Assembly (NCBI GenBank): GCA_045599485.1
Contig: JAZRWA010000089.1
Span: 1-12,495 of the forward strand
Source of the DNA: Clostridia bacterium
Lineage (GTDB): Bacteria; Bacillota; Clostridia; Christensenellales; Aristaeellaceae
Direction: 5' to 3'
Length of the DNA stretch: 12,495 nucleotides
Below the pieces are notes generated by a model. It did no database searches and was not told the DNA's origin. It saw nothing but the letters and a program-made list of their open reading frames with translations. This document shows positions 2 through 12,077 of this stretch, in pieces. How positions within the stretch are numbered: position 1 is the stretch's first letter; each line of letters starts with the position of its first letter. Made by a program: the position numbers and the translations under genes.

Positions 2-766
2 GAAGATGCTCATAAGGCGGCGGGAGAAAGATTGAAGGACTATCCCGGTTTTCGACCGATTCACGGTAACTTTCATGACATAAGAGAGCTTCTGCCTGAA
101 GGCACTATGCTCGACGGCGGTCTTTTGGATCTGGGTGTTTCCTCCTATCAGATCGATACGCCCGAAAGAGGATTCTCTTATCATGAAGATGCGCCGCTGG
201 ACATGCGCATGGATCGTTCACAGGGAGTCACCGCGGCCGAATGGCTGGCGATGCAGGATGAAAAGACCATCATGAACGCACTGTATGATTACGGTGATGA
301 GAAATGGGCGGCCCGCATCGCCAAGGTGATCGTGGAAAGACGTGCAGCAAAGCCCATTCTGACCACAACGGATCTTGTCAGCTGTGTGGATGCGGCCATA
401 CCGAAGGCAGTGCGCCGTAAGGACGAAGGGCATCCGGCAAGAAGGACGTTTCAGGCGGTACGTATCGCCGTGAACGACGAGCTGGCTCCTTTGTAGCAGG
501 CGCTGAACGACTGGATGAGCATGATTCGCCCCGGCGGCAGGTTGTGTGTGATCACTTTTCATTCGATTGAAGACCGAATTGTGAAGCATGCGTTCAAGAC
601 GATGCAGAATCCCTGTATCTGTCCGCCGAAGGCTCCGATCTGCACCTGTGGGAGAAAACCAATTGCCAGGGTGATGGGCGGCGGCGCCATCAAGGCTTCT
701 GCCGAAGAATTGGAAAAGAATTCACGCGCGCACAGCGCAACGCTGCGCGTCGCCCAAAAACTGTAA
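2..766 (+). CDS. rsmH: 16S rRNA (cytosine1402-N4)-methyltransferase RsmH/MraW, 5'-truncated at the window edge; one reading frame with an in-frame TAG at 494-496
   Basis: ORFs 32-496 and 515-766 share a frame (both 2 mod 3) and the frame is open from position 2. Upstream of the TAG: [37 protein letters not shown]. Downstream: [20 protein letters not shown] and the Cys-rich CICPPKAPICTCG tail. All are typical RsmH motifs. Ends in TAA at 764-766. Confidence 0.88.
494..496 (+). other. In-frame TAG inside rsmH (candidate sense codon)
   Basis: GAG CTG GCT CCT TTG TAG CAG GCG CTG; the same frame carries conserved RsmH sequence on both sides. Confidence 0.8.
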
Positions 767-2451: not shown

Positions 2452-2552
2452 AAATAACAGCCGATTTGCTGTACCATATCATGCAAAGCGGCGGGTTCAA
2501 ACTGCATCAGTTCTACGTATATTCTTGCATACGATGGCCGGAAAAGGGAAAA

Positions 2553-3254
2553 ATGATAAAATACGAAAGTGACCATTACATATTTAACTACAATAAAGGA
2601 ACACAGGCAGAACGGGATATTTTGACCATTGCCAAGGGGCAGGAAGACTGCTTCCGTTATATCTGCAAAGTTCTGGACGCGCAGCCTGACTTCAAAATTG
2701 AATACTTCCTCTGCGATACACCCGAAAAAGTGGGACATATTTACGGCGATGATGACCCCTGCAACGCCTTTGCGGCGCCACCAAACAAAATCTATGCAGT
2801 GTATAACGAGCAAGTGAAGTGCATCGGTTTCCATGAGGATGTTCACCTTATCAGCTATCTGATCAACCGCCCCGATCCTCCCGCCATTCGGGAAGGTTTG
2901 GCCATGTACTTTGATCGCAAGTGGTGGGGAATCCATAATCTGGATTGGTGCGGATTCTTCCTGAAAACCGAACGGTATATTTCCGTTGCAGCATTGCTGA
3001 CCAGAAAAGTGTTTTTCGAGACGGACTGTACCATATGCTATCCGATCATGGGAGCCTTTACGGATTATCTGATTGCAACCTATGGTCATGCAGCCTATCT
3101 GGAAATGTATAAGCAGCAGGATATTCCGCAGGCCATGAAGGCAGTATTCGGTAAATCTCCGGAGGAATTGAACGCAGAATTTATCGGCTATGTGAAGCTG
3201 TTCCGCATTGACCCGGAACTGGAAAAGCGGATGGAAGAATTGTTTTGCCAGTAA
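2553..3254 (+). CDS. Hypothetical protein with an HExxH motif, possibly peptidase-MA-like (gluzincin-type)
   Basis: ORF 2376-3254; I place the start at ATG 2553, preceded by AAGGGA. It contains FHEDVH (HExxH), followed about 19 residues later by REGLAMYF, which resembles the third-ligand Glu segment of Peptidase_MA_2-type proteins. No signal peptide is evident. TAA stop. Confidence 0.5.
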   Translation: MIKYESDHYIFNYNKGTQAERDILTIAKGQEDCFRYICKVLDAQPDFKIEYFLCDTPEKVGHIYGDDDPCNAFAAPPNKIYAVYNEQVKCIGFHEDVHLISYLINRPDPPAIREGLAMYFDRKWWGIHNLDWCGFFLKTERYISVAALLTRKVFFETDCTICYPIMGAFTDYLIATYGHAAYLEMYKQQDIPQAMKAVFGKSPEELNAEFIGYVKLFRIDPELEKRMEELFCQ

Positions 3255-3348
3255 AAATGCAAGCAGTTCAACTTTGGTGAGCGCCAAAGCAAGAACACAA
3301 GCATCACTTGATGTAATCAAAAAAGCAGATGCTTCCTATAGAGTACAA

Positions 3349-3391
3349 AACAAGCAATGCACAATCCGGATAGGATCGAGCATTGCTTGTT
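3349..3391. terminator. Candidate bidirectional terminator hairpin between convergent genes
   Basis: Perfect 12-bp stem: aacaagcaatgc (3349-3360) pairs with gcattgcttgtt (3380-3391). The loop is 19 nt. It is flanked by TTTATTT on the plus strand and TTTTGT on the minus strand, and sits between the plus-strand stop at 3254 and the minus-strand stop at 3464. Confidence 0.5.
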
Positions 3392-3463
3392 TATTTACCG
3401 CTCGTTTAGCAGATACCGATTATTCGTTTTATCAAGAGTTCACTAAACGGTTGCTGCTTTTGA

Positions 3464-4771
3464 TTATCGGCGTAATCCCTTCGGATAATGGTTTTTGATC
3501 AGGTCATCGGAGATTTTACCGAAGCCAAGAGTATAGCCCTGCAGGGAAACGGTGCAATAGCCTTTTAGCGTTCCGTTGTAAGGAATGGCATCGCCGTGGA
3601 TATAAGCCGCTGCTTCCGCTTCGGTGAGGGCAATTTCCTTTTTGCTTCTTTCTGCTAAAGCCAAAGCGTGATTTGGAACAAAATTCTTGCCCTTGAGTTC
3701 ACCCACATGAAACCCTGCACGGAGGACCTTGATTCCCTTCAGATCGGGGATGATGGCAGGGATGAGCGTAAGCTGATTGCCGAAAAGAGCGTTGGGCATC
3801 AACTCATAGCCAAGTTCGTCCATAAAAGATTTGACAGGCGGAAGGCTGCGTTGATCGGGAGCAGGCAATGTGCCATAAGCTGACGCAAATTTATCAGAAT
3901 CGATGTTCTTTTGAAGAAGGGCAATAAAATGGCCCTCTCCGCGGATTTTGTGCGGCCAGAGATGCAGCATGCCATCCGAAGAATCAGCTGTCTACGGCAA
4001 GGAAAATGGCACCAATGAGAAATCGGGATGACGGGTAAGAAACGCTGTAATGGATTGATCGTTTTCGAGGGTATTGAAAGTGCAGGTGCTGTACACCAAG
4101 GTGCCGCCGGGTTTAAGCATATCGGCTGCGGCATCCAGGATACCGGCCTGTCGTTCGGCACAGTGAGCGGGGGAAGCTTCCGACCATTCCAAACGAGCCT
4201 GCGGATCCTTGCGGAACATGCCTTCTCCGGAACAGGGTGCATCGACAAGGATGCGGTCAAAGAAATAGGTCCATTTCAATCGGAGCTGATCGGGATATGC
4301 GGAAGTTACGATACAGTTTTCGATCCCCATGCGTTCAATGTTGGAGGAGAGAATCTGAGCACGAGACGGAATAGGCTCATTGGATACGAGCAGAGCGGGG
4401 TGAAAGGACATGGCTATTTGCGTGGATTTTCCACCGGGTGCGGCACAAAGATCCAGCACAGTATCGGTGGGCTTTGGGGCGAGTACAGCAGCGGCAGCCA
4501 TAGCGGATGGTTCCTGAATGTAATAAGCCCCTGCATCATGAAGGATCGTAGCTCCGGCGCGTGATGTGTTGGCCAGATAATATGCATGGGGAACATAAGG
4601 AATCTTTCCGATAAGATCTTCGGAAGGCATAGGAGTGCGGTCGTCCCGGAAGCGGATACCGCGGGTGTGCGGATCGAGATACGTTTTCAGGAAGGCTTCG
4701 GTTTCGTTTCCAAGCTGGGTACGGATGTTTTCAATAAAAAGAGGAGGTAACGCATGCAGTGTATCACTCAT
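3464..4771 (-). CDS. RsmB/RsmF (NOL1/NOP2/Sun) family rRNA m5C methyltransferase with an RsmF-type C-terminal domain; in-frame TAG at 3992-3994
   Basis: ORFs 3992-4801 and 3464-3970 share a frame, with 7 sense codons (TADSSDG) between them. The N-terminal part has LDLCAAPGGKS (SAM motif I), DAPCSGEGMFRKDP (motif IV) and YSTCT (motif VI). After the TAG comes LHLWPHKIRGEGHFIALLQK, typical of the RsmF C-terminal domain. I chose the start at 4771 (MSDTLH) because GGAGGT lies upstream. TAA stop. 435 codons in total. Confidence 0.8.
3992..3994 (-). other. In-frame TAG inside the RsmF-like methyltransferase gene (candidate sense codon)
   Basis: Minus strand TTG CCG TAG ACA GCT; the catalytic domain lies upstream and the RsmF C-terminal domain downstream in the same frame. 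Confidence 0.8.
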
Positions 4772-4797
4772 TTTGTTACCTCCGTAAAATGATTTGA

Positions 4798-5274
4798 TCA
4801 TGTGTTGGAATCGGAATAAATCTTGCTGCGATAACGGCGAACGGGGACTTCGGTTTGCGGAGGCAGTATCTGATCCTGCTGCTCGGGAGCATCATTGGAA
4901 GAAGCATCTGATGGAAGCTCATTCTGCTGATACAGATCGGCAACGCCTGTCTCGTTAAAGGAATAGCCGCTGATGCCGTCGGTATATCCGCCTTGAAAAC
5001 CGCCTTGATAGAAGGCATCGTCATAGGCGGAGGCAGACGGAATTTCACGATGAGGTTTGCCAATCAGAAAGGGACGCCAACGCAGCACATAGACAGTCAG
5101 GTCTGCCGCACAGCCAAGCAGCAGCAACAGGAGAAATGCGACAAACCAGTAACGGTTCAGCCACGACAGAAACGAACCGGAACCGCTGCCGCTGAATGCT
5201 TGCAGTAACTCCTGAAAGAAACTGCGCAGCCAGCCGAGCAGAGAAGAAATTAAAGAAGTGGCAAATCTGTTCAT
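4798..5274 (-). CDS. Hypothetical small membrane protein
   Basis: 158-aa ORF with one clear hydrophobic helix (YWFVAFLLLLLLGCAADLTVYVL) and a low-complexity G/Q/S-rich tail. It is tightly packed between cdaR (stop 5277) and the RsmF-like gene. TGA stop. I recognise no family. Confidence 0.55.
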   Translation of the reverse strand: MNRFATSLISSLLGWLRSFFQELLQAFSGSGSGSFLSWLNRYWFVAFLLLLLLGCAADLTVYVLRWRPFLIGKPHREIPSASAYDDAFYQGGFQGGYTDGISGYSFNETGVADLYQQNELPSDASSNDAPEQQDQILPPQTEVPVRRYRSKIYSDSNT

Positions 5275-5276
5275 GG

Positions 5277-6317
5277 TTATTCGTTGGAGACGATTTCAAT
5301 CGTGACAGTCAGGGAATCGGCGCTGCAGTAGATGACGCCGGTTGGTTTGCTGAGGGTGACATTTTTCTGGAAGGAAGCGGTGGCGCCGCTGATGTCGATT
5401 TGACTTTCGATATACTCGATCAGATGCAGTTCATCCAGGGAATTGAGCAGTTTTTCGTTTGCGGCGAAAAGAACGGAAGAGGGTTCCACTGTGATACGCT
5501 TGAGCGCATAGCCTTCAGCCGGCTGACCACAGGTGAGGTCGGCGGTGTTGATGACCAGCGATTTGGTGGGATAGATCGTTTGCTCAACAATCAGGCTGTC
5601 CAGCAGGACCGACTCGGAAGTGACCTCGATGAGGGCAGAATCAACGGTGCTCTGGTCGGAGGAGATCAAACGGAAGGGAACAGCAGTGCGCTCGTTTCCG
5701 GAAGAACCGCTCAAAAGGGACAAGTCATAATCGGCAACACAGCGGATGATATTACGTACACGGGAAAGCGGACCGGAGACCGTAACATAGAGCGGGTCAA
5801 CGGCGGCGGAGGTGGCATACATTCCTTCGGGCAGTTGACCGCTGGTCTCAAGGCGCACAGGAATACGGCTGCGGGTGACATACTCGTCCACCTGCAGGGT
5901 GACGGTGCCGATGCTGACTTCCGTGACCGTTCCATAGGTGGAGGAATTGGTGGAGAGAATGTTGAGAGTTTGCGTACCGGTGCCGCGAATTCTGGACAGA
6001 TCAATACGGACATTGAAGTTGGAGGCCGAGACGGTGTTGTAGACATTCTGCGGTACTTCTGCTTTGAGGCGGATAAGCGGCAGATTGTCGAGACCATCGA
6101 CAACGATATAGCCGTTGCGGCGGAGCGTATCGGAGCCGATGATGTTGATGCTCACATCGTTGAAGGTTTTTTCACGGGTCAGAGAGCTGTCGGCGGTGAT
6201 GAGACCGCTCCACAGGCAGACGGCAAGCAGAAGGGACAAAAGCTTCCACGGCCAGTTGTGGATTAAAAACTGAAGAGCCTGCTTCAAATACGGCTTTGGT
6301 TCAAATGTCTTTTTCAT
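5277..6317 (-). CDS. cdaR: YbbR-domain protein CdaR (regulator of the diadenylate cyclase CdaA)
   Basis: Lies immediately downstream of cdaA. It has an N-terminal TM helix (WKLLSLLLAVCLW) followed by repeated beta-rich YbbR-like modules (patterns of the form VxVxGxxxxL ... DLS). I place the start at ATG 6317 (MKKTFEPKP) with a GGGAGA RBS. TAA stop. Confidence 0.78.
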   Translation of the reverse strand: MKKTFEPKPYLKQALQFLIHNWPWKLLSLLLAVCLWSGLITADSSLTREKTFNDVSINIIGSDTLRRNGYIVVDGLDNLPLIRLKAEVPQNVYNTVSASNFNVRIDLSRIRGTGTQTLNILSTNSSTYGTVTEVSIGTVTLQVDEYVTRSRIPVRLETSGQLPEGMYATSAAVDPLYVTVSGPLSRVRNIIRCVADYDLSLLSGSSGNERTAVPFRLISSDQSTVDSALIEVTSESVLLDSLIVEQTIYPTKSLVINTADLTCGQPAEGYALKRITVEPSSVLFAANEKLLNSLDELHLIEYIESQIDISGATASFQKNVTLSKPTGVIYCSADSLTVTIEIVSNE

Positions 6318-7140
6318 GCTTCTATCTCCCTTTGAACCATTTGAAGGCGGCGGAAACGGGGGAAGGTTTTTTGCTGCGATACATGCCGTGGAGAATGTTT
6401 TCCAGTGAGGCACTATCAAGATGACGAGTCAGTTTTCCGTTGTGAGCGGTACTGATGATGCCGGTTTCCTCACTGACGATCAGCACAATGGCATCGGTGG
6501 TTTCGGAAACACCGAGCGCAGCGCGATGCCGGGTGCCGAGATCACGGCTGATGGAGCTGGATTCACTGAGGGTGAGGAAGCAGGCACCGGCGATGATGCG
6601 TGTATCACGGATAATGACCGCGCCATCGTGCAAGGGGGTGTTGGGTTCAAAGATGTTTTCCAACAGGGGAGCAGAAATGACGCTGTCCAACCGGGTACCG
6701 GTCTCGATGATCTCTTTTAAGCCGGTCTGCTGTTCAAAGACGATGAGCGCACCGACACGGCGGCGTGAAAGGTTGTTGAGGCAAAGGATGATTTCACTGA
6801 CGATGCGGGCGTTTTCTTCTTCGTCATTGAGAAAATGACGAAATTTGGTGCCGCGGCCAACCTGCTCGAGAATGCGGCGCAATTCGGGCTGAAAGAGGAT
6901 AACAAGTGCGACAGCACCGTTGCTGACGATCAGGTTCATGACCCAGGACAGCGCAGTCAACCCAAGCATGTTGGAAACCAGACAGGCAAGCAAAAGCACG
7001 ATGAGACCCTTGACAACTTCACTGGCGCGGGTGCCGCGAACAAGCATCAGGAGCTCATAGATCAAAAAAGAAACGACGATTATATCAAAAATGTCAGTCA
7101 GAGACGGACGATTAAAAATGTTCCAAAGAAAGTTTTGCAT
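6301..7140 (-). CDS. cdaA: Diadenylate cyclase CdaA (DacA); a TAG at 6322-6324 lies six codons before a TGA at 6301-6303
   Basis: Three N-terminal TM helices plus a DAC domain with DGAVII, GTRHRAALGVSETTDA and VSEETGIIS. Under the standard code the CDS is 6322-7140. With TAG as sense it gains KHEKDI and ends at TGA, overlapping the cdaR start. Confidence 0.88.
6322..6324 (-). other. TAG near the end of cdaA (either a stop or a sense codon followed by a 6-codon tail)
   Basis: Minus strand GGG AGA TAG AAG CAT GAA AAA GAC ATT TGA. Confidence 0.45.
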
Positions 7141-8405: not shown

Positions 8406-8434
8406 ATTATAGTTGATTCGGAAGAGCATATCAA
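8406..8434 (-). promoter_or_regulatory. Candidate sigma-A promoter for the lipoprotein gene
   Basis: On the minus strand: TTGATA (8434-8429), a 17-nt spacer, then TATAAT (8411-8406). It lies about 35 nt upstream of ATG 8371. Confidence 0.5.
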
Positions 8435-9321
8435 GATAATTTTTTGTGAACATATTCGCGCAGCAGACCATCACAGTTGGTTCGTTCGGAAACGATCAGC
8501 TATGACAGGTGGAGGAAGTCCATCACTGCGCAAAGGATTGCAAGCCCGGTTGGGAGAATGTTGCCGCGTCCCTTCGGGCAGCCGGGAATCATTTCACGTT
8601 CCAAAGGCGTGAGAGGAGCGATCTGCGTCAGAAGCTGCCTTACCTGGTCGCGGTGAAGATGAACTCCTTCAGCAGCATCGGTACGGGCAATCATCCTTGC
8701 GGATGCCGTTCCGGTGCCACCGACAAGGTATACGGCAGAACCCGCAGGAAAGGAGGCGGGCACAGAGGGCTCGTTCATGATGATATTACGCGCAGCCGCA
8801 AGGGCTTTTTGGACATCGGCGGCTTCGTGGATCGGGCAGACTGAAAATAGCCGGGAAGCTCCCAACTGCAGAGAAAGACATCGGGGGTGCATGTCGGTAT
8901 CGTAGTAAGCCAGTTCGGTGGATCCGCCGCCGATATCGATCACGGCACCGGGGGCATACCCTGCTGATCCGAGCAGGGAAAAACGGGCTTCTTCCGCACC
9001 GGAGATGATCTGGAGAGGGAGCCCGCAGGCAGAAAAAATGGCGTGGGCGAGAGCATCGGAGTTTTCGGCGTCGCGGACAGCGCTTGTGGCGTAAACACCA
9101 ATCAACACGGAATGCTCCTGCGCGGCGATGGCTTGAAGACGACGGATATCCTCCGCGGTTTGCTCAATCGTTTCCTGCGGAAAACGGCGGCTTTGGCTCA
9201 AATGAAGGAAGAGACGGGATTCGATACGATGACGGGTTGGATTGCTGAGGGAAGTGTCGGTATCCGCGCAGAGCATACGCGCCGAATTGGAACCGATAAC
9301 GATGACGGCGATCCTGTTCAT
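8431..9321 (-). CDS. Ppx/GppA-family phosphatase (exopolyphosphatase / pppGpp phosphohydrolase-like); in-frame TAG at 8500-8502
   Basis: IGSNSARM and DIGGGSTEL are ASKHA-fold phosphate-binding motifs. ORF 8500-9321 stops at TAG, and the frame then continues for 22 codons (LIVSERTNCDGLLREYVHKKLS) to TGA at 8431-8433. This gives a typical length of about 296 aa and a GLLxE-like domain end. Confidence 0.78.
8500..8502 (-). other. In-frame TAG inside the ppx/gppA-like gene (candidate sense codon)
   Basis: Minus strand CTG TCA TAG CTG ATC, followed by 22 further sense codons and then TGA. Confidence 0.7.
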
Positions 9322-9671
9322 AGCTGATCACTTTCTACGACATACATTTCAACCGTCTGCGTGCTGTCGCCAAGCGCCTACGGGTTGGCGATGATAAAAC
9401 GAATTTCTCCGGGAACACTGTAACCATACATTTCACGGGCTTTGGTCATGATGTATTCGGTGGTCTGCAGGATGGAGACCTCGGCGGAAAGCTGACGGGC
9501 TTCCAGCGTTTGTTTCGCGCTGCGCTATTGTAGCGACGCGTATTCCTGCTGCATGGCGGCGGAGTCGCGGTGGACGCGGATGATCATGAGCAAGCCGATG
9601 GCAAAAATGACAGACAGAACACAGACTGCGAAAAGCGGAGATACGGTTTTTTGTTTCAGTCGTTCGGCCAT
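9318..9671 (-). CDS. Septum formation initiator (FtsB/DivIC family) protein; two in-frame TAGs at 9525-9527 and 9378-9380
   Basis: Absent from the ORF track because the TAGs cut it into pieces shorter than 60 aa. My manual translation is MAERLKQKTVSPLFAVCVLSVIFAIGLLMIIRVHRDSAAMQQEYASLQ-TAG-RSAKQTLEARQLSAEVSILQTTEYIMTKAREMYGYSVPGEIRFIIANP-TAG-ALGDSTQTVEMYVVESDQL-TGA. It has the expected TM helix, coiled coil and ARExxGYxxPGE motif. A GGAGGA RBS precedes ATG 9671. The TGA overlaps the ppx ATG as ATGA. Confidence 0.65.
9378..9380 (-). other. Second TAG in the divIC/ftsB-like gene (a stop under the standard code; if sense, a 19-codon tail follows)
   Basis: Minus strand AAC CCG TAG GCG CTT; the frame stays open to a TGA that forms an ATGA overlap with the ppx start. 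Confidence 0.5.
9525..9527 (-). other. In-frame TAG inside the divIC/ftsB-like coiled coil (candidate sense codon)
   Basis: Minus strand CTA CAA TAG CGC AGC; the conserved ARExxGYxxPGE motif lies downstream in the same frame. Confidence 0.75.
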
Positions 9672-11324: not shown

Positions 11325-12077
11325 TTATTCGCCCGGGAACATTTGGGCGAGACCTTTCTGAATACCGGTATCCCAGAACCACCAGTCATGGACGCCGTCC
11401 CACTCCTCGTAGCTGCAGGGAATGTTTTTGGTATGGAAAAAATCATGGAGCTTGCGGGACATGCGGAGCAATCCGTCCTCGGTACCGCAGGCCATATAGA
11501 GCTTTGGCAGCTTCTTTCCTCCCGCAAGGGCTTTTTCGGTGAGCTTTTCGATGTCGTTTTCTTCACCGAAGGGCAGTTCGGGACCGAGAATGGCCCTCCA
11601 TTCATCCTGCTATGAACCTGCGACATCGTCGCGCCAAAGGCTGCGATCCATGGGATAGAAGCAGGAAGAGAGAGCGATGCATCCGGCATATTTATCCGGG
11701 GCTGTGGCGACACATTTCATGGCACCATAACCGCCCATGGAAAGACCGCCGATATACAGGTGCTCGGGATCGGTCGGAATGCGGAATTCCGCGGCCATCT
11801 TGGCGGGAAGCTCTTCAAAAACATAAGTGAAGTATTTAAGACCGTAGGCCATATCGATGTACCAGGAACGCTGCACCTACGGCATGACGACAGCAAGACG
11901 ATATTTATCAGTCAGACGACCGATGGCAGTACGGCGGACCCAGGCATCGCAGTTATCACTGAGACCATGCAGCAAAAGAAGGGTACGCTCAGGTGCGGCA
12001 TGGTCGGGAAGAAGAACATTGACGTGTGTATACATGGACAGACTGTCTGCCCGAATGGTTCCGTGATAAAAAGACAT
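11325..12077 (-). CDS. Esterase-family alpha/beta hydrolase (esterase D / tributyrin esterase-like); two in-frame TAGs at 11877-11879 and 11610-11612
   Basis: Three contiguous same-frame segments. Segment 1: MSFYHG...LLLLHGLSDN...AVVMP. Segment 2: VQRSWYIDM...GGLSMGGYGA, containing the GxSxG nucleophile. Segment 3 is my manual translation: QDEWRAILGPELPFGEENDIEKLTEKALAGGKKLPKLYMACGTEDGLLRMSRKLHDFFHTKNIPCSYEEWDGVHDWWFWDTGIQKGLAQMFPGE, carrying the candidate catalytic Asp and His. A GAGGTG RBS precedes ATG 12077. TAA stop at 11325-11327. Confidence 0.8.
11610..11612 (-). other. Second in-frame TAG inside the esterase gene (candidate sense codon)
   Basis: Minus strand GGT TCA TAG CAG GAT; the candidate catalytic Asp and His segments lie downstream in the same frame. 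Confidence 0.8.
11877..11879 (-). other. In-frame TAG inside the esterase gene (candidate sense codon)
   Basis: Minus strand ATG CCG TAG GTG CAG; it lies within the conserved VVMP-x-xxRSWYxDM block. Confidence 0.8.

Follow-up and report, generated by a model that had tools for sequence, protein, structure and literature searches.

UAG as a probable glutamate codon in a small Christensenellales-like clade

UAG is very probably a rare sense codon for glutamate (Glu), and not a stop, in a small Christensenellales-like clade. The clade comprises the 12,495-nucleotide contig stretch analyzed here (the window), which comes from an uncultivated Clostridia bacterium, and the relatives L001, L003, and L204/L205. 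Across this locus, comparison of at least four independent assemblies shows TAG behaving as a translated, selectively maintained, Glu-equivalent codon. The evidence is drawn entirely from a single syntenic locus of ~13 kb in a rare, poorly assembled clade, so that a genome-wide meaning is an extrapolation. An earlier note, made from the window sequence alone, had proposed that an RsmF-like methyltransferase gene is read through a TAG. Its central point stands in that one gene is translated through the codon. However, the behavior is not specific to rsmF. Seven other in-frame TAGs occur in five further window genes and swap with Glu codons in relatives, which indicates that what TAG means has shifted across the lineage and that the event is not gene-specific.

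An RsmF-like gene with an in-frame TAG

The open reading frames at 3992-4801 and 3464-3970 share a frame and are split by a TAG and seven sense codons, with all coordinates as the earlier note had given them. The sequence around the codon is ...FSLVPFSLP-TAG-TADSSDG-ATG..., and the internal ATG occupies 3970-3968. From its start (ATG 4771-4769) to its stop (TAA 3466-3464, minus strand), the joined product comprises 259 + 1 + 175 = 435 codons, TAG counted in. With TAG read as Glu, the peptide over the site would be ...FSLP-E-TADSSDGMLHLWPHK. The joined size had been called usual for the family, and the rsmF homologues from outside the clade agree, being single proteins in 118 of 118 cases with lengths of 418-476 aa. 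As judged from sequence comparison, the two frames are one RsmF-like gene that has to be translated through TAG (Table 1).

Table 1. Features of the window that bear on the reading of TAG.
Feature	Coordinates	Strand	Details
rsmH (MraW), 5' end cut by window edge	2..766	plus	TAG 494-496; GAA in L003 and L205; Glu in 50/71 relatives
RsmF-like 16S rRNA m5C methyltransferase gene	3464..4771	minus	435 codons with TAG as sense; RsmF_N, RsmB/F catalytic, RsmF_CI, and PUA domains
In-frame TAG, rsmF codon 260	3992..3994	minus	Loop inside the catalytic fold; TAG in L001, L003, and L204
Shine-Dalgarno GGAGG	4779..4783	minus	7 nt 5' of rsmF ATG 4771-4769
cdaA (diadenylate cyclase)	6301..7140	minus	TAG 6322-6324; true stop TGA 6301-6303
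Ppx/GppA-family phosphatase gene	8431..9321	minus	TAG 8500-8502, codon 274/296; Glu commonest in homologues (31/117)
FtsL/DivIC-like cell-division gene	9318..9671	minus	TAGs 9525-9527 and 9378-9380; CAG in L204 at the first
Esterase-family gene (PF00756-like)	11325..12077	minus	TAGs 11877-11879 (Glu in 115/119 homologues, MP-E-VQRSWY) and 11610-11612 (GAA in L003)

The joined translation gives a single match to Pfam PF01189 that runs over the TAG (aa 95-287, profile positions 2-199 of 199). The match of the N-terminal half by itself stops at profile position 166 of 199. In the joined protein, the four-domain architecture is complete, with PF17125, PF01189, PF17126, and PF13636 each above cut-off. 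Searches with phmmer return one unbroken alignment over the TAG to 3m4x, 3m6u (Thermus thermophilus RsmF), and 2frx (Escherichia coli YebU). In the AlphaFold2 model of the joined protein (pLDDT 90.6, pTM 0.90), codon 260 falls within a loop (residues 254-267) between strand 251-253 and the core strands 268-271 and 281-288. With the whole model as query, Foldseek yields TMq values of 0.85-0.88 to 3m4x and 3m6w and of 0.80-0.88 over RsmF-type structures. The check that had been proposed, a single match spanning both halves, is therefore positive with Pfam, with phmmer against solved structures, and with the structural match of the joined model. In contrast, the placement of the TAG between the catalytic and C-terminal domains is wrong. 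The codon lies inside the PF01189 match, in the loop before the last two beta-strands. Given this position ahead of the last two core strands, a product ending at the TAG would miss part of the core sheet.

The SAM-binding motif DLCAAPGGKSTQ and the cysteine motifs DAPCSGEG (C180) and STCT (C230) are invariant in the family alignment. Like the RsmF/YebU-type methyltransferases of T. thermophilus (3m6u-x), E. coli (2frx), and Enterococcus faecium (3m4x), the window protein has four domains and both cysteine motifs, and its structural match extends over the full length. Unlike characterized RsmF, it scores under the NCBIfam equivalog cut-offs (273.9 vs. 690 bits for NF041567; 219.2 vs. 588 for NF008898), so that its target base is unproven. 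The predicted protein is thus a clear member of the RsmF family, with C1407 specificity as a candidate only. Orthologues that end at the equivalent of ...FSLP and leave the C-terminal domain to a separate gene, which the earlier note had named as the case against its reading, were not found. The orthologues from outside the clade are all full-length, and split "orthologues" occur only among close relatives with the same TAG.

TAG codons elsewhere in the window

Re-read with TAA and TGA as the sole stops, the window holds 14 genes with 3601 codons. Six of these genes (rsmH, rsmF, cdaA, ppx, an ftsL-like gene, and an esterase gene) contain in-frame TAGs, eight in all. Neither TAA nor TGA occurs in frame within the 14 genes. 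Off frame, the same genes contain 228 TGA, 38 TAA, and 7 TAG triplets. Seven of the genes stop at TAA, seven at TGA, and none at TAG. For rsmH, ppx, and the esterase gene, homology to solved structures continues past the TAGs. Read through its TAG, cdaA overlaps the ATG of cdaR (6317) by 17 nt, and the overlap is 11 nt in the standard-code relative L002. No common flanking context was found for the eight TAGs, and the window genes are free of frameshifts. The G+C content is an ordinary 52.5%, and the locus is without sign of genome reduction.

Conservation of TAG within the clade

The contigs of close relatives were fetched from Logan (L001, SRR21150928; L003, SRR27361835) and from ENA (L204 and L205, both ERZ27247129). 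L003 is syntenic with the whole window at 84-98% amino-acid identity, and L001, L003, and L204 are independent assemblies of 84-98% identical relatives. All fetched clade contigs that cover rsmF, namely L001, L003, and L204, keep its TAG. Together with five other TAGs, this codon is conserved in independent assemblies (SRR21150928, SRR27361835, and ERZ27247129). Additional in-frame TAGs are found in other genes of L003 and L204, bringing the total in L003 to 11-13. In the window, in L003, and in L001, regions of homology carry internal TAGs at a density of 2.0-3.1 per 1000 codons. The clade genes with TAG include the housekeeping genes rsmH and cdaA, and in the relatives also tsaB and rimI.

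The window and L003 are separated by a dS of about 0.55-0.62. Upstream of the rsmF TAG the dN/dS ratio is 0.12, and downstream of it 0.16, which indicates purifying selection on both parts as coding sequence in frame. Additionally, rsmF of L001, L003, and L204 contains a second TAG, located 3' of the internal ATG within RG-x-GHF (the RG-E-GHF motif). A C-terminal protein initiated independently at that ATG is therefore ruled out in these three relatives.

Outgroups and gene-end usage

With RsmH as the query, the GTDB species representatives provided 80 loci from Christensenellales/Clostridia MAGs of rumen and gut, at no more than 83% identity. The recoded clade is absent among the representatives that the scan returned. 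Internal TAGs were counted by comparing all ORFs of the 80 relatives and the clade loci against each other, with the frame selected, and no convincing case was found in the ~80 Christensenellales relatives or in L002. The apparent TAG richness of the loci L059, L081, and L075 was rejected, as it proved to come from runs of N. Other apparent internal TAGs in relatives were rejected for being sited before start codons or at gene ends. Recoding is thus seen in the window, L001, L003, and L204/L205, but in neither L002 nor the ~80 GTDB relatives.

The syntenic JGI contig L002 has 43% G+C and 91% CoaX identity. Its rsmF is intact, with GGT at the position of the window's TAG, and the gene upstream of rsmF ends with TAG. 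Reading through that gene-end codon in L002 was considered and rejected, as homology stops there and the extension would enter the rsmF start. At gene ends overall, TAG occurs in 0 of 36 cases in the clade, a small sample that is weak alone, vs. 56 of 825 (6.8%) in the relatives (P about 0.08). The nine closest relative loci have TAG at 2 of 101 gene ends.

The amino acid at TAG

Eight TAG sites vary within the clade, and at six of them TAG alternates with GAA or GAG. The alternative codon is GAA at rsmH 165, cdaA 108, and esterase 156, and GAG at rsmF 279, rimI 37, and tsaB 147. The remaining two sites have CAG (Gln) at ftsL 49 and GTG (Val) at ppx 72.

Homologues from outside the clade provide a second view of the same question. 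Glu fills the column of rsmF 279 in 118 of 118 sequences, that of esterase 67 in 115 of 119, and that of rsmH 165 in 50 of 71. It is also the top residue at ppx 274 (31/117). The column of ppx 72 is mixed (P 36, Q 22, E 22), and at rsmF 260, the window's own TAG, Gly predominates (108/118). Summed over these six columns, the log-odds are +12.5 bits for Glu, -10.1 for Arg as the next residue, and -10.9 for Gln. Taken together, these comparisons make Glu the best-supported meaning of TAG. As rsmF 260 is mostly Gly in homologues, this site alone gives no pointer to Glu. It is a diverged loop position at which Glu is tolerated and not ancestral. The outgroups have Glu at rsmH 165 and rsmF 279, and the polarity of these two sites suggests a continuing gain of TAG from GAG.

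Proposed decoding of UAG

Under the proposed code, ribosomes would insert Glu at rsmF codon 260 and run on to the TAA at 3464, which would make rsmF an ordinary gene of 435 aa. The seven other TAGs of rsmH, cdaA, ppx, the ftsL-like gene, and the esterase gene would be read as Glu in the same way, and termination would rely on UAA and UGA only. The anticodon of tRNA-Glu is one step from reading UAG. The reading calls for a tRNA with anticodon CUA, the simplest form of which would be a copy of tRNA-Glu with a C36-to-A change, charged by GluRS. Release factor RF1 would be lost or blind to UAG, with RF2 serving UAA and UGA. Both the tRNA(CUA) and the change in RF1 are postulated from the way in which the known UGA reassignments work (PMC13462651; PMC8629427). 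The code may have originated by codon capture, and the low use of TAG as a stop in relatives (~7%, and ~2% in the closest) fits such an origin.

The genes for this machinery were sought in the available sequence. ARAGORN finds no tRNA gene in the window or in any other clade locus, ~39 kb in total, and the loci of the 80 relatives hold Met, Val, and Ala tRNAs only. A metagenome scan for a Glu-like tRNA(CUA) with the pattern CTCTAAN{11,14}GGGTTCGAATCCC returned at least 63 assorted suppressor tRNAs, mostly on environmental contigs, none of which is linked to the lineage among the matches listed. A GGQ-motif search of all fetched ORFs finds no release-factor gene in the fetched loci.

Alternative explanations

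UAG could be a sense codon with another meaning, such as Gln, pyrrolysine (Pyl), or a mixture of Glu and Gln produced by a tRNA(CUA) that GatCAB processes in part. The single TAG/CAG swap within the clade (ftsL codon 49) favors Gln, which also ranks second among the residues of both ppx columns. In addition, Clostridia usually form Gln-tRNA through mischarged Glu-tRNA. However, six TAG/GAR swaps stand against the one CAG, and the columns with Glu in 118/118 and 115/119 homologues oppose any residue other than Glu, as do the log-odds for Gln vs. Glu. For Pyl, there is no Lys-like or methyltransferase pattern, and the invariant Glu columns and GAR swaps again speak against it. Another residue at UAG is thus unlikely. 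A dual, context-dependent UAG is slightly less probable still. The codon would then be an ambiguous intermediate, read as Glu inside genes and as a stop at the ends of some, and RF1 would still be present. Since 36 gene ends were sampled and TAG is already rare in relatives, the count of 0/36 is not decisive on this point. Nevertheless, TAG terminates none of the genes in the window, L001, L003, or L204, and the eight window TAGs lack a common sequence context. Moreover, TAG at the invariant catalytic-domain Glu of rsmF 279 and at the 97%-conserved Glu of the esterase would require efficient decoding.

Explanations that leave UAG as a stop fare worse. It is very improbable that the TAGs are nonsense mutations of a decaying genome or GAG-to-TAG errors of sequencing or assembly. 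The source is a metagenome-assembled contig, and one G-to-T change, of the type made by oxidative damage, is enough to turn GAG into TAG. However, the same TAGs are present in four independent assemblies, and TAG is the one stop triplet found in frame, never TAA or TGA. Decay is also at odds with the intact frames, with the low dN/dS on either side of the rsmF TAG, and with the housekeeping genes affected, which extend to tsaB and rimI in relatives. The least probable account confines the matter to rsmF, either as programmed read-through of its TAG alone or as a truly split gene with a separately started C-terminal protein. An ATG does follow eight codons past the TAG, and gene callers annotate two proteins. 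However, the earlier note had seen no independent ribosome-binding site for the C-terminal frame, and indeed no AGGAGG-like Shine-Dalgarno sequence precedes ATG 3970. Promoter and terminator scans likewise find no such site between the two halves. A split at the TAG would also separate the last two strands from the rest of the catalytic fold, and in L001, L003, and L204 the product from that ATG would stop at the second TAG (RG-x-GHF). Read-through specific to rsmF does not account for the seven TAGs in five other genes; stimulatory context is lacking, and no RNA signal between the rsmF halves matches Rfam. The evidence as a whole therefore favors UAG as a Glu codon.

Comparison with known codes

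Two bacterial codes are known in which a stop codon has gained a sense meaning. Code 4 reads UGA as Trp (Mycoplasmatales, several endosymbionts, and Eggerthellaceae MAGs), and code 25 reads UGA as Gly (Gracilibacteria/Absconditabacteria). In gut phages (crAss-like and Lak), code 15 assigns TAG to Gln, which is read by a suppressor tRNA(CUA). Among nuclear codes (eRF1), UAR means Glu in code 30 of peritrich ciliates and in code 31 of Blastocrithidia. All known bacterial code changes reassign UGA (Shulgina & Eddy 2021, PMC8629427), and UGA-to-Trp and UGA-to-Gly are the only ones listed for bacteria (gTranslate, 10.64898/2026.05.24.727570; Eggerthellaceae paper 2026, PMC13462651). A count of "three codes known in Bacteria" is given by Kivenson 2024, where UAG-to-Pyl is described for Archaea only (10.1101/2024.09.30.615893), and gTranslate 2026 handles tables 4, 11, and 25 only (10.64898/2026.05.24.727570). 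The literature open to search, up to August 2026, yielded no bacterial code that assigns UAG to a standard amino acid, Glu included. The code of the window lineage would likely be the first natural bacterial code of this kind. It would use UAA and UGA alone as stops and be confined to a narrow gut/rumen-type Christensenellales clade of normal G+C, with turnover from GAG to TAG ongoing.

Like codes 4 and 25, the proposed code would turn a stop into a sense codon throughout a bacterial lineage. As with those codes, conserved genes contain stops in frame, code 11 breaks up the gene calls, and the distribution is monophyletic (PMC13462651; PMC8629427). The mechanism expected in each case is a mutated tRNA anticodon together with loss of the matching release factor (PMC13462651; PMC8629427). 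Unlike codes 4 and 25, the window lineage would have changed UAG, with RF1 and not RF2 as the dispensable factor and Glu as the amino acid. Its G+C content is ordinary, and genome reduction is not apparent at the locus.

The phage code 15 makes the same codon sense in the same type of habitat, the animal gut. However, phages often recode their late genes only, and the amino acid is Gln. The window TAGs are in chromosomal housekeeping genes that are syntenic with Christensenellales MAGs and fall in Glu columns. Codes 30 and 31 share the change of a stop codon to Glu, but there UAA and UAG change together in eukaryotic nuclear genomes, whereas UAA is still a stop in the window (7 of 14 gene ends). 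Code 34, in which every UAG is read as Pyl, also has a genome-wide sense UAG in a prokaryote with two stops left (10.1101/2024.09.30.615893). Unlike the window pattern, which has Glu and no link to methylamine metabolism, code 34 belongs to Archaea, needs the Pyl machinery, and is sporadic in distribution.

Implications and annotation

If the proposed code is correct, RF1-dependent termination can also be given up in bacteria, in this case in Clostridia of a free-living type. The clade would then be a natural counterpart of the engineered E. coli strains from which RF1 was deleted. The sites polymorphic for TAG and GAG would offer a live test of codon-capture and ambiguous-intermediate models. 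Expectations about TAG-recoded gut phages and their hosts would shift, and the clade would be a possible source of an orthogonal-looking tRNA/GluRS pair.

The practical consequences concern annotation. Code 11 mis-annotates the genomes of the clade, and truncated halves are present in public databases (P0001, P0263, and P0143). MAG quality estimates may suffer too under code 11, and mis-annotation may account for the absence of the clade among the GTDB representatives in the RsmH scan. For rsmF, gene callers annotate two products, which are P0001 (259 aa) and C-terminal pieces of 140-168 aa. In addition to the window's own halves P0001 and P0263, the protein database contains an 87%-identical RsmF fragment, P0038, which is likewise 259 aa long.

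TAG Usage in the Window and Its Relatives

Across the 14 window genes, TAG occurs in frame eight times per 3601 codons. It is commoner in frame than out because off-frame TAG is very rare, with only seven occurrences, alongside 38 for TAA and 228 for TGA. This in-frame excess is the reverse of what is expected of a stop codon. In the standard-code Christensenellales and Clostridia relatives (L004–L083), TAG closes 56 of 825 genes (6.8%), and in the nine closest relative loci it is found at 2 of 101 gene ends (about 2%). Such low usage as a stop corresponds to the pre-depletion expected before codon capture.

The metagenome contigs matching a simple tRNA(CUA) pattern (L084–L203) include at least 63 suppressor-type tRNAs from very diverse environmental metagenomes, and among the matches listed, some are located in multi-tRNA arrays. 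Judging from these pattern matches, environmental data appear rich in UAG-reading tRNAs.

Database Fragmentation of Clade Proteins

Proteins of the clade, which comprises the window and its relatives with in-frame TAG, are present in databases only as fragments called under the standard bacterial code (code 11), as in the public entries P0001, P0038, P0143, and P0263–P0265 and the gene calls of clade loci L003 and L204. This fragmentation may explain the clade's absence from the GTDB representatives returned by the RsmH scan, and it may also distort the quality scores of MAGs.

Features of the window and fragments of clade proteins
Feature	Window position or size	Strand	Context
End of cdaA, with its in-frame TAG inside the GGGAGA Shine-Dalgarno region of downstream cdaR (ATG 6317)	6301–6324	−	
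Predicted 158-aa protein, N-terminal half hydrophobic	4798–5274	−	
Extra ~1-kb segment between coaX and the rsmF 3′ end	2452–3463		Relative to L003
ORF of ~233 aa (MIKYESDHYIFNY...)	about 2553–3254	+	Inside coaX-rsmF segment
RsmF fragments	259 + 140 aa		Code-11 calls, clade
Ppx fragments	273/198/192 + 71 aa		Code-11 calls, clade
CdaA fragment	107 aa		Code-11 calls, clade
Esterase fragments	175 + 66 aa		Code-11 calls, clade
TsaB fragment	140 aa		Code-11 calls, clade

Gene Neighborhood of cdaA, cdaR, and rsmF

With TAG read through, cdaA and cdaR overlap by 17 nt, which is comparable to the 11 nt in the syntenic standard-code relative L002. The 158-aa predicted protein is conserved between cdaR and rsmF in L002 (36% identity to the window protein) and in the clade loci L001, L003, and L204. 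It belongs to no Pfam or NCBIfam family, and the cdaA-cdaR operon may include it as a third member.

The coaX-rsmF spacing is about 30 nt in L003, where the window's ~1-kb segment is missing at this position; this segment may be a strain-specific insertion. Its ~233-aa ORF had no match in Pfam or NCBIfam, and among the fetched loci, L045 alone supplied a homologue, with 57% identity.
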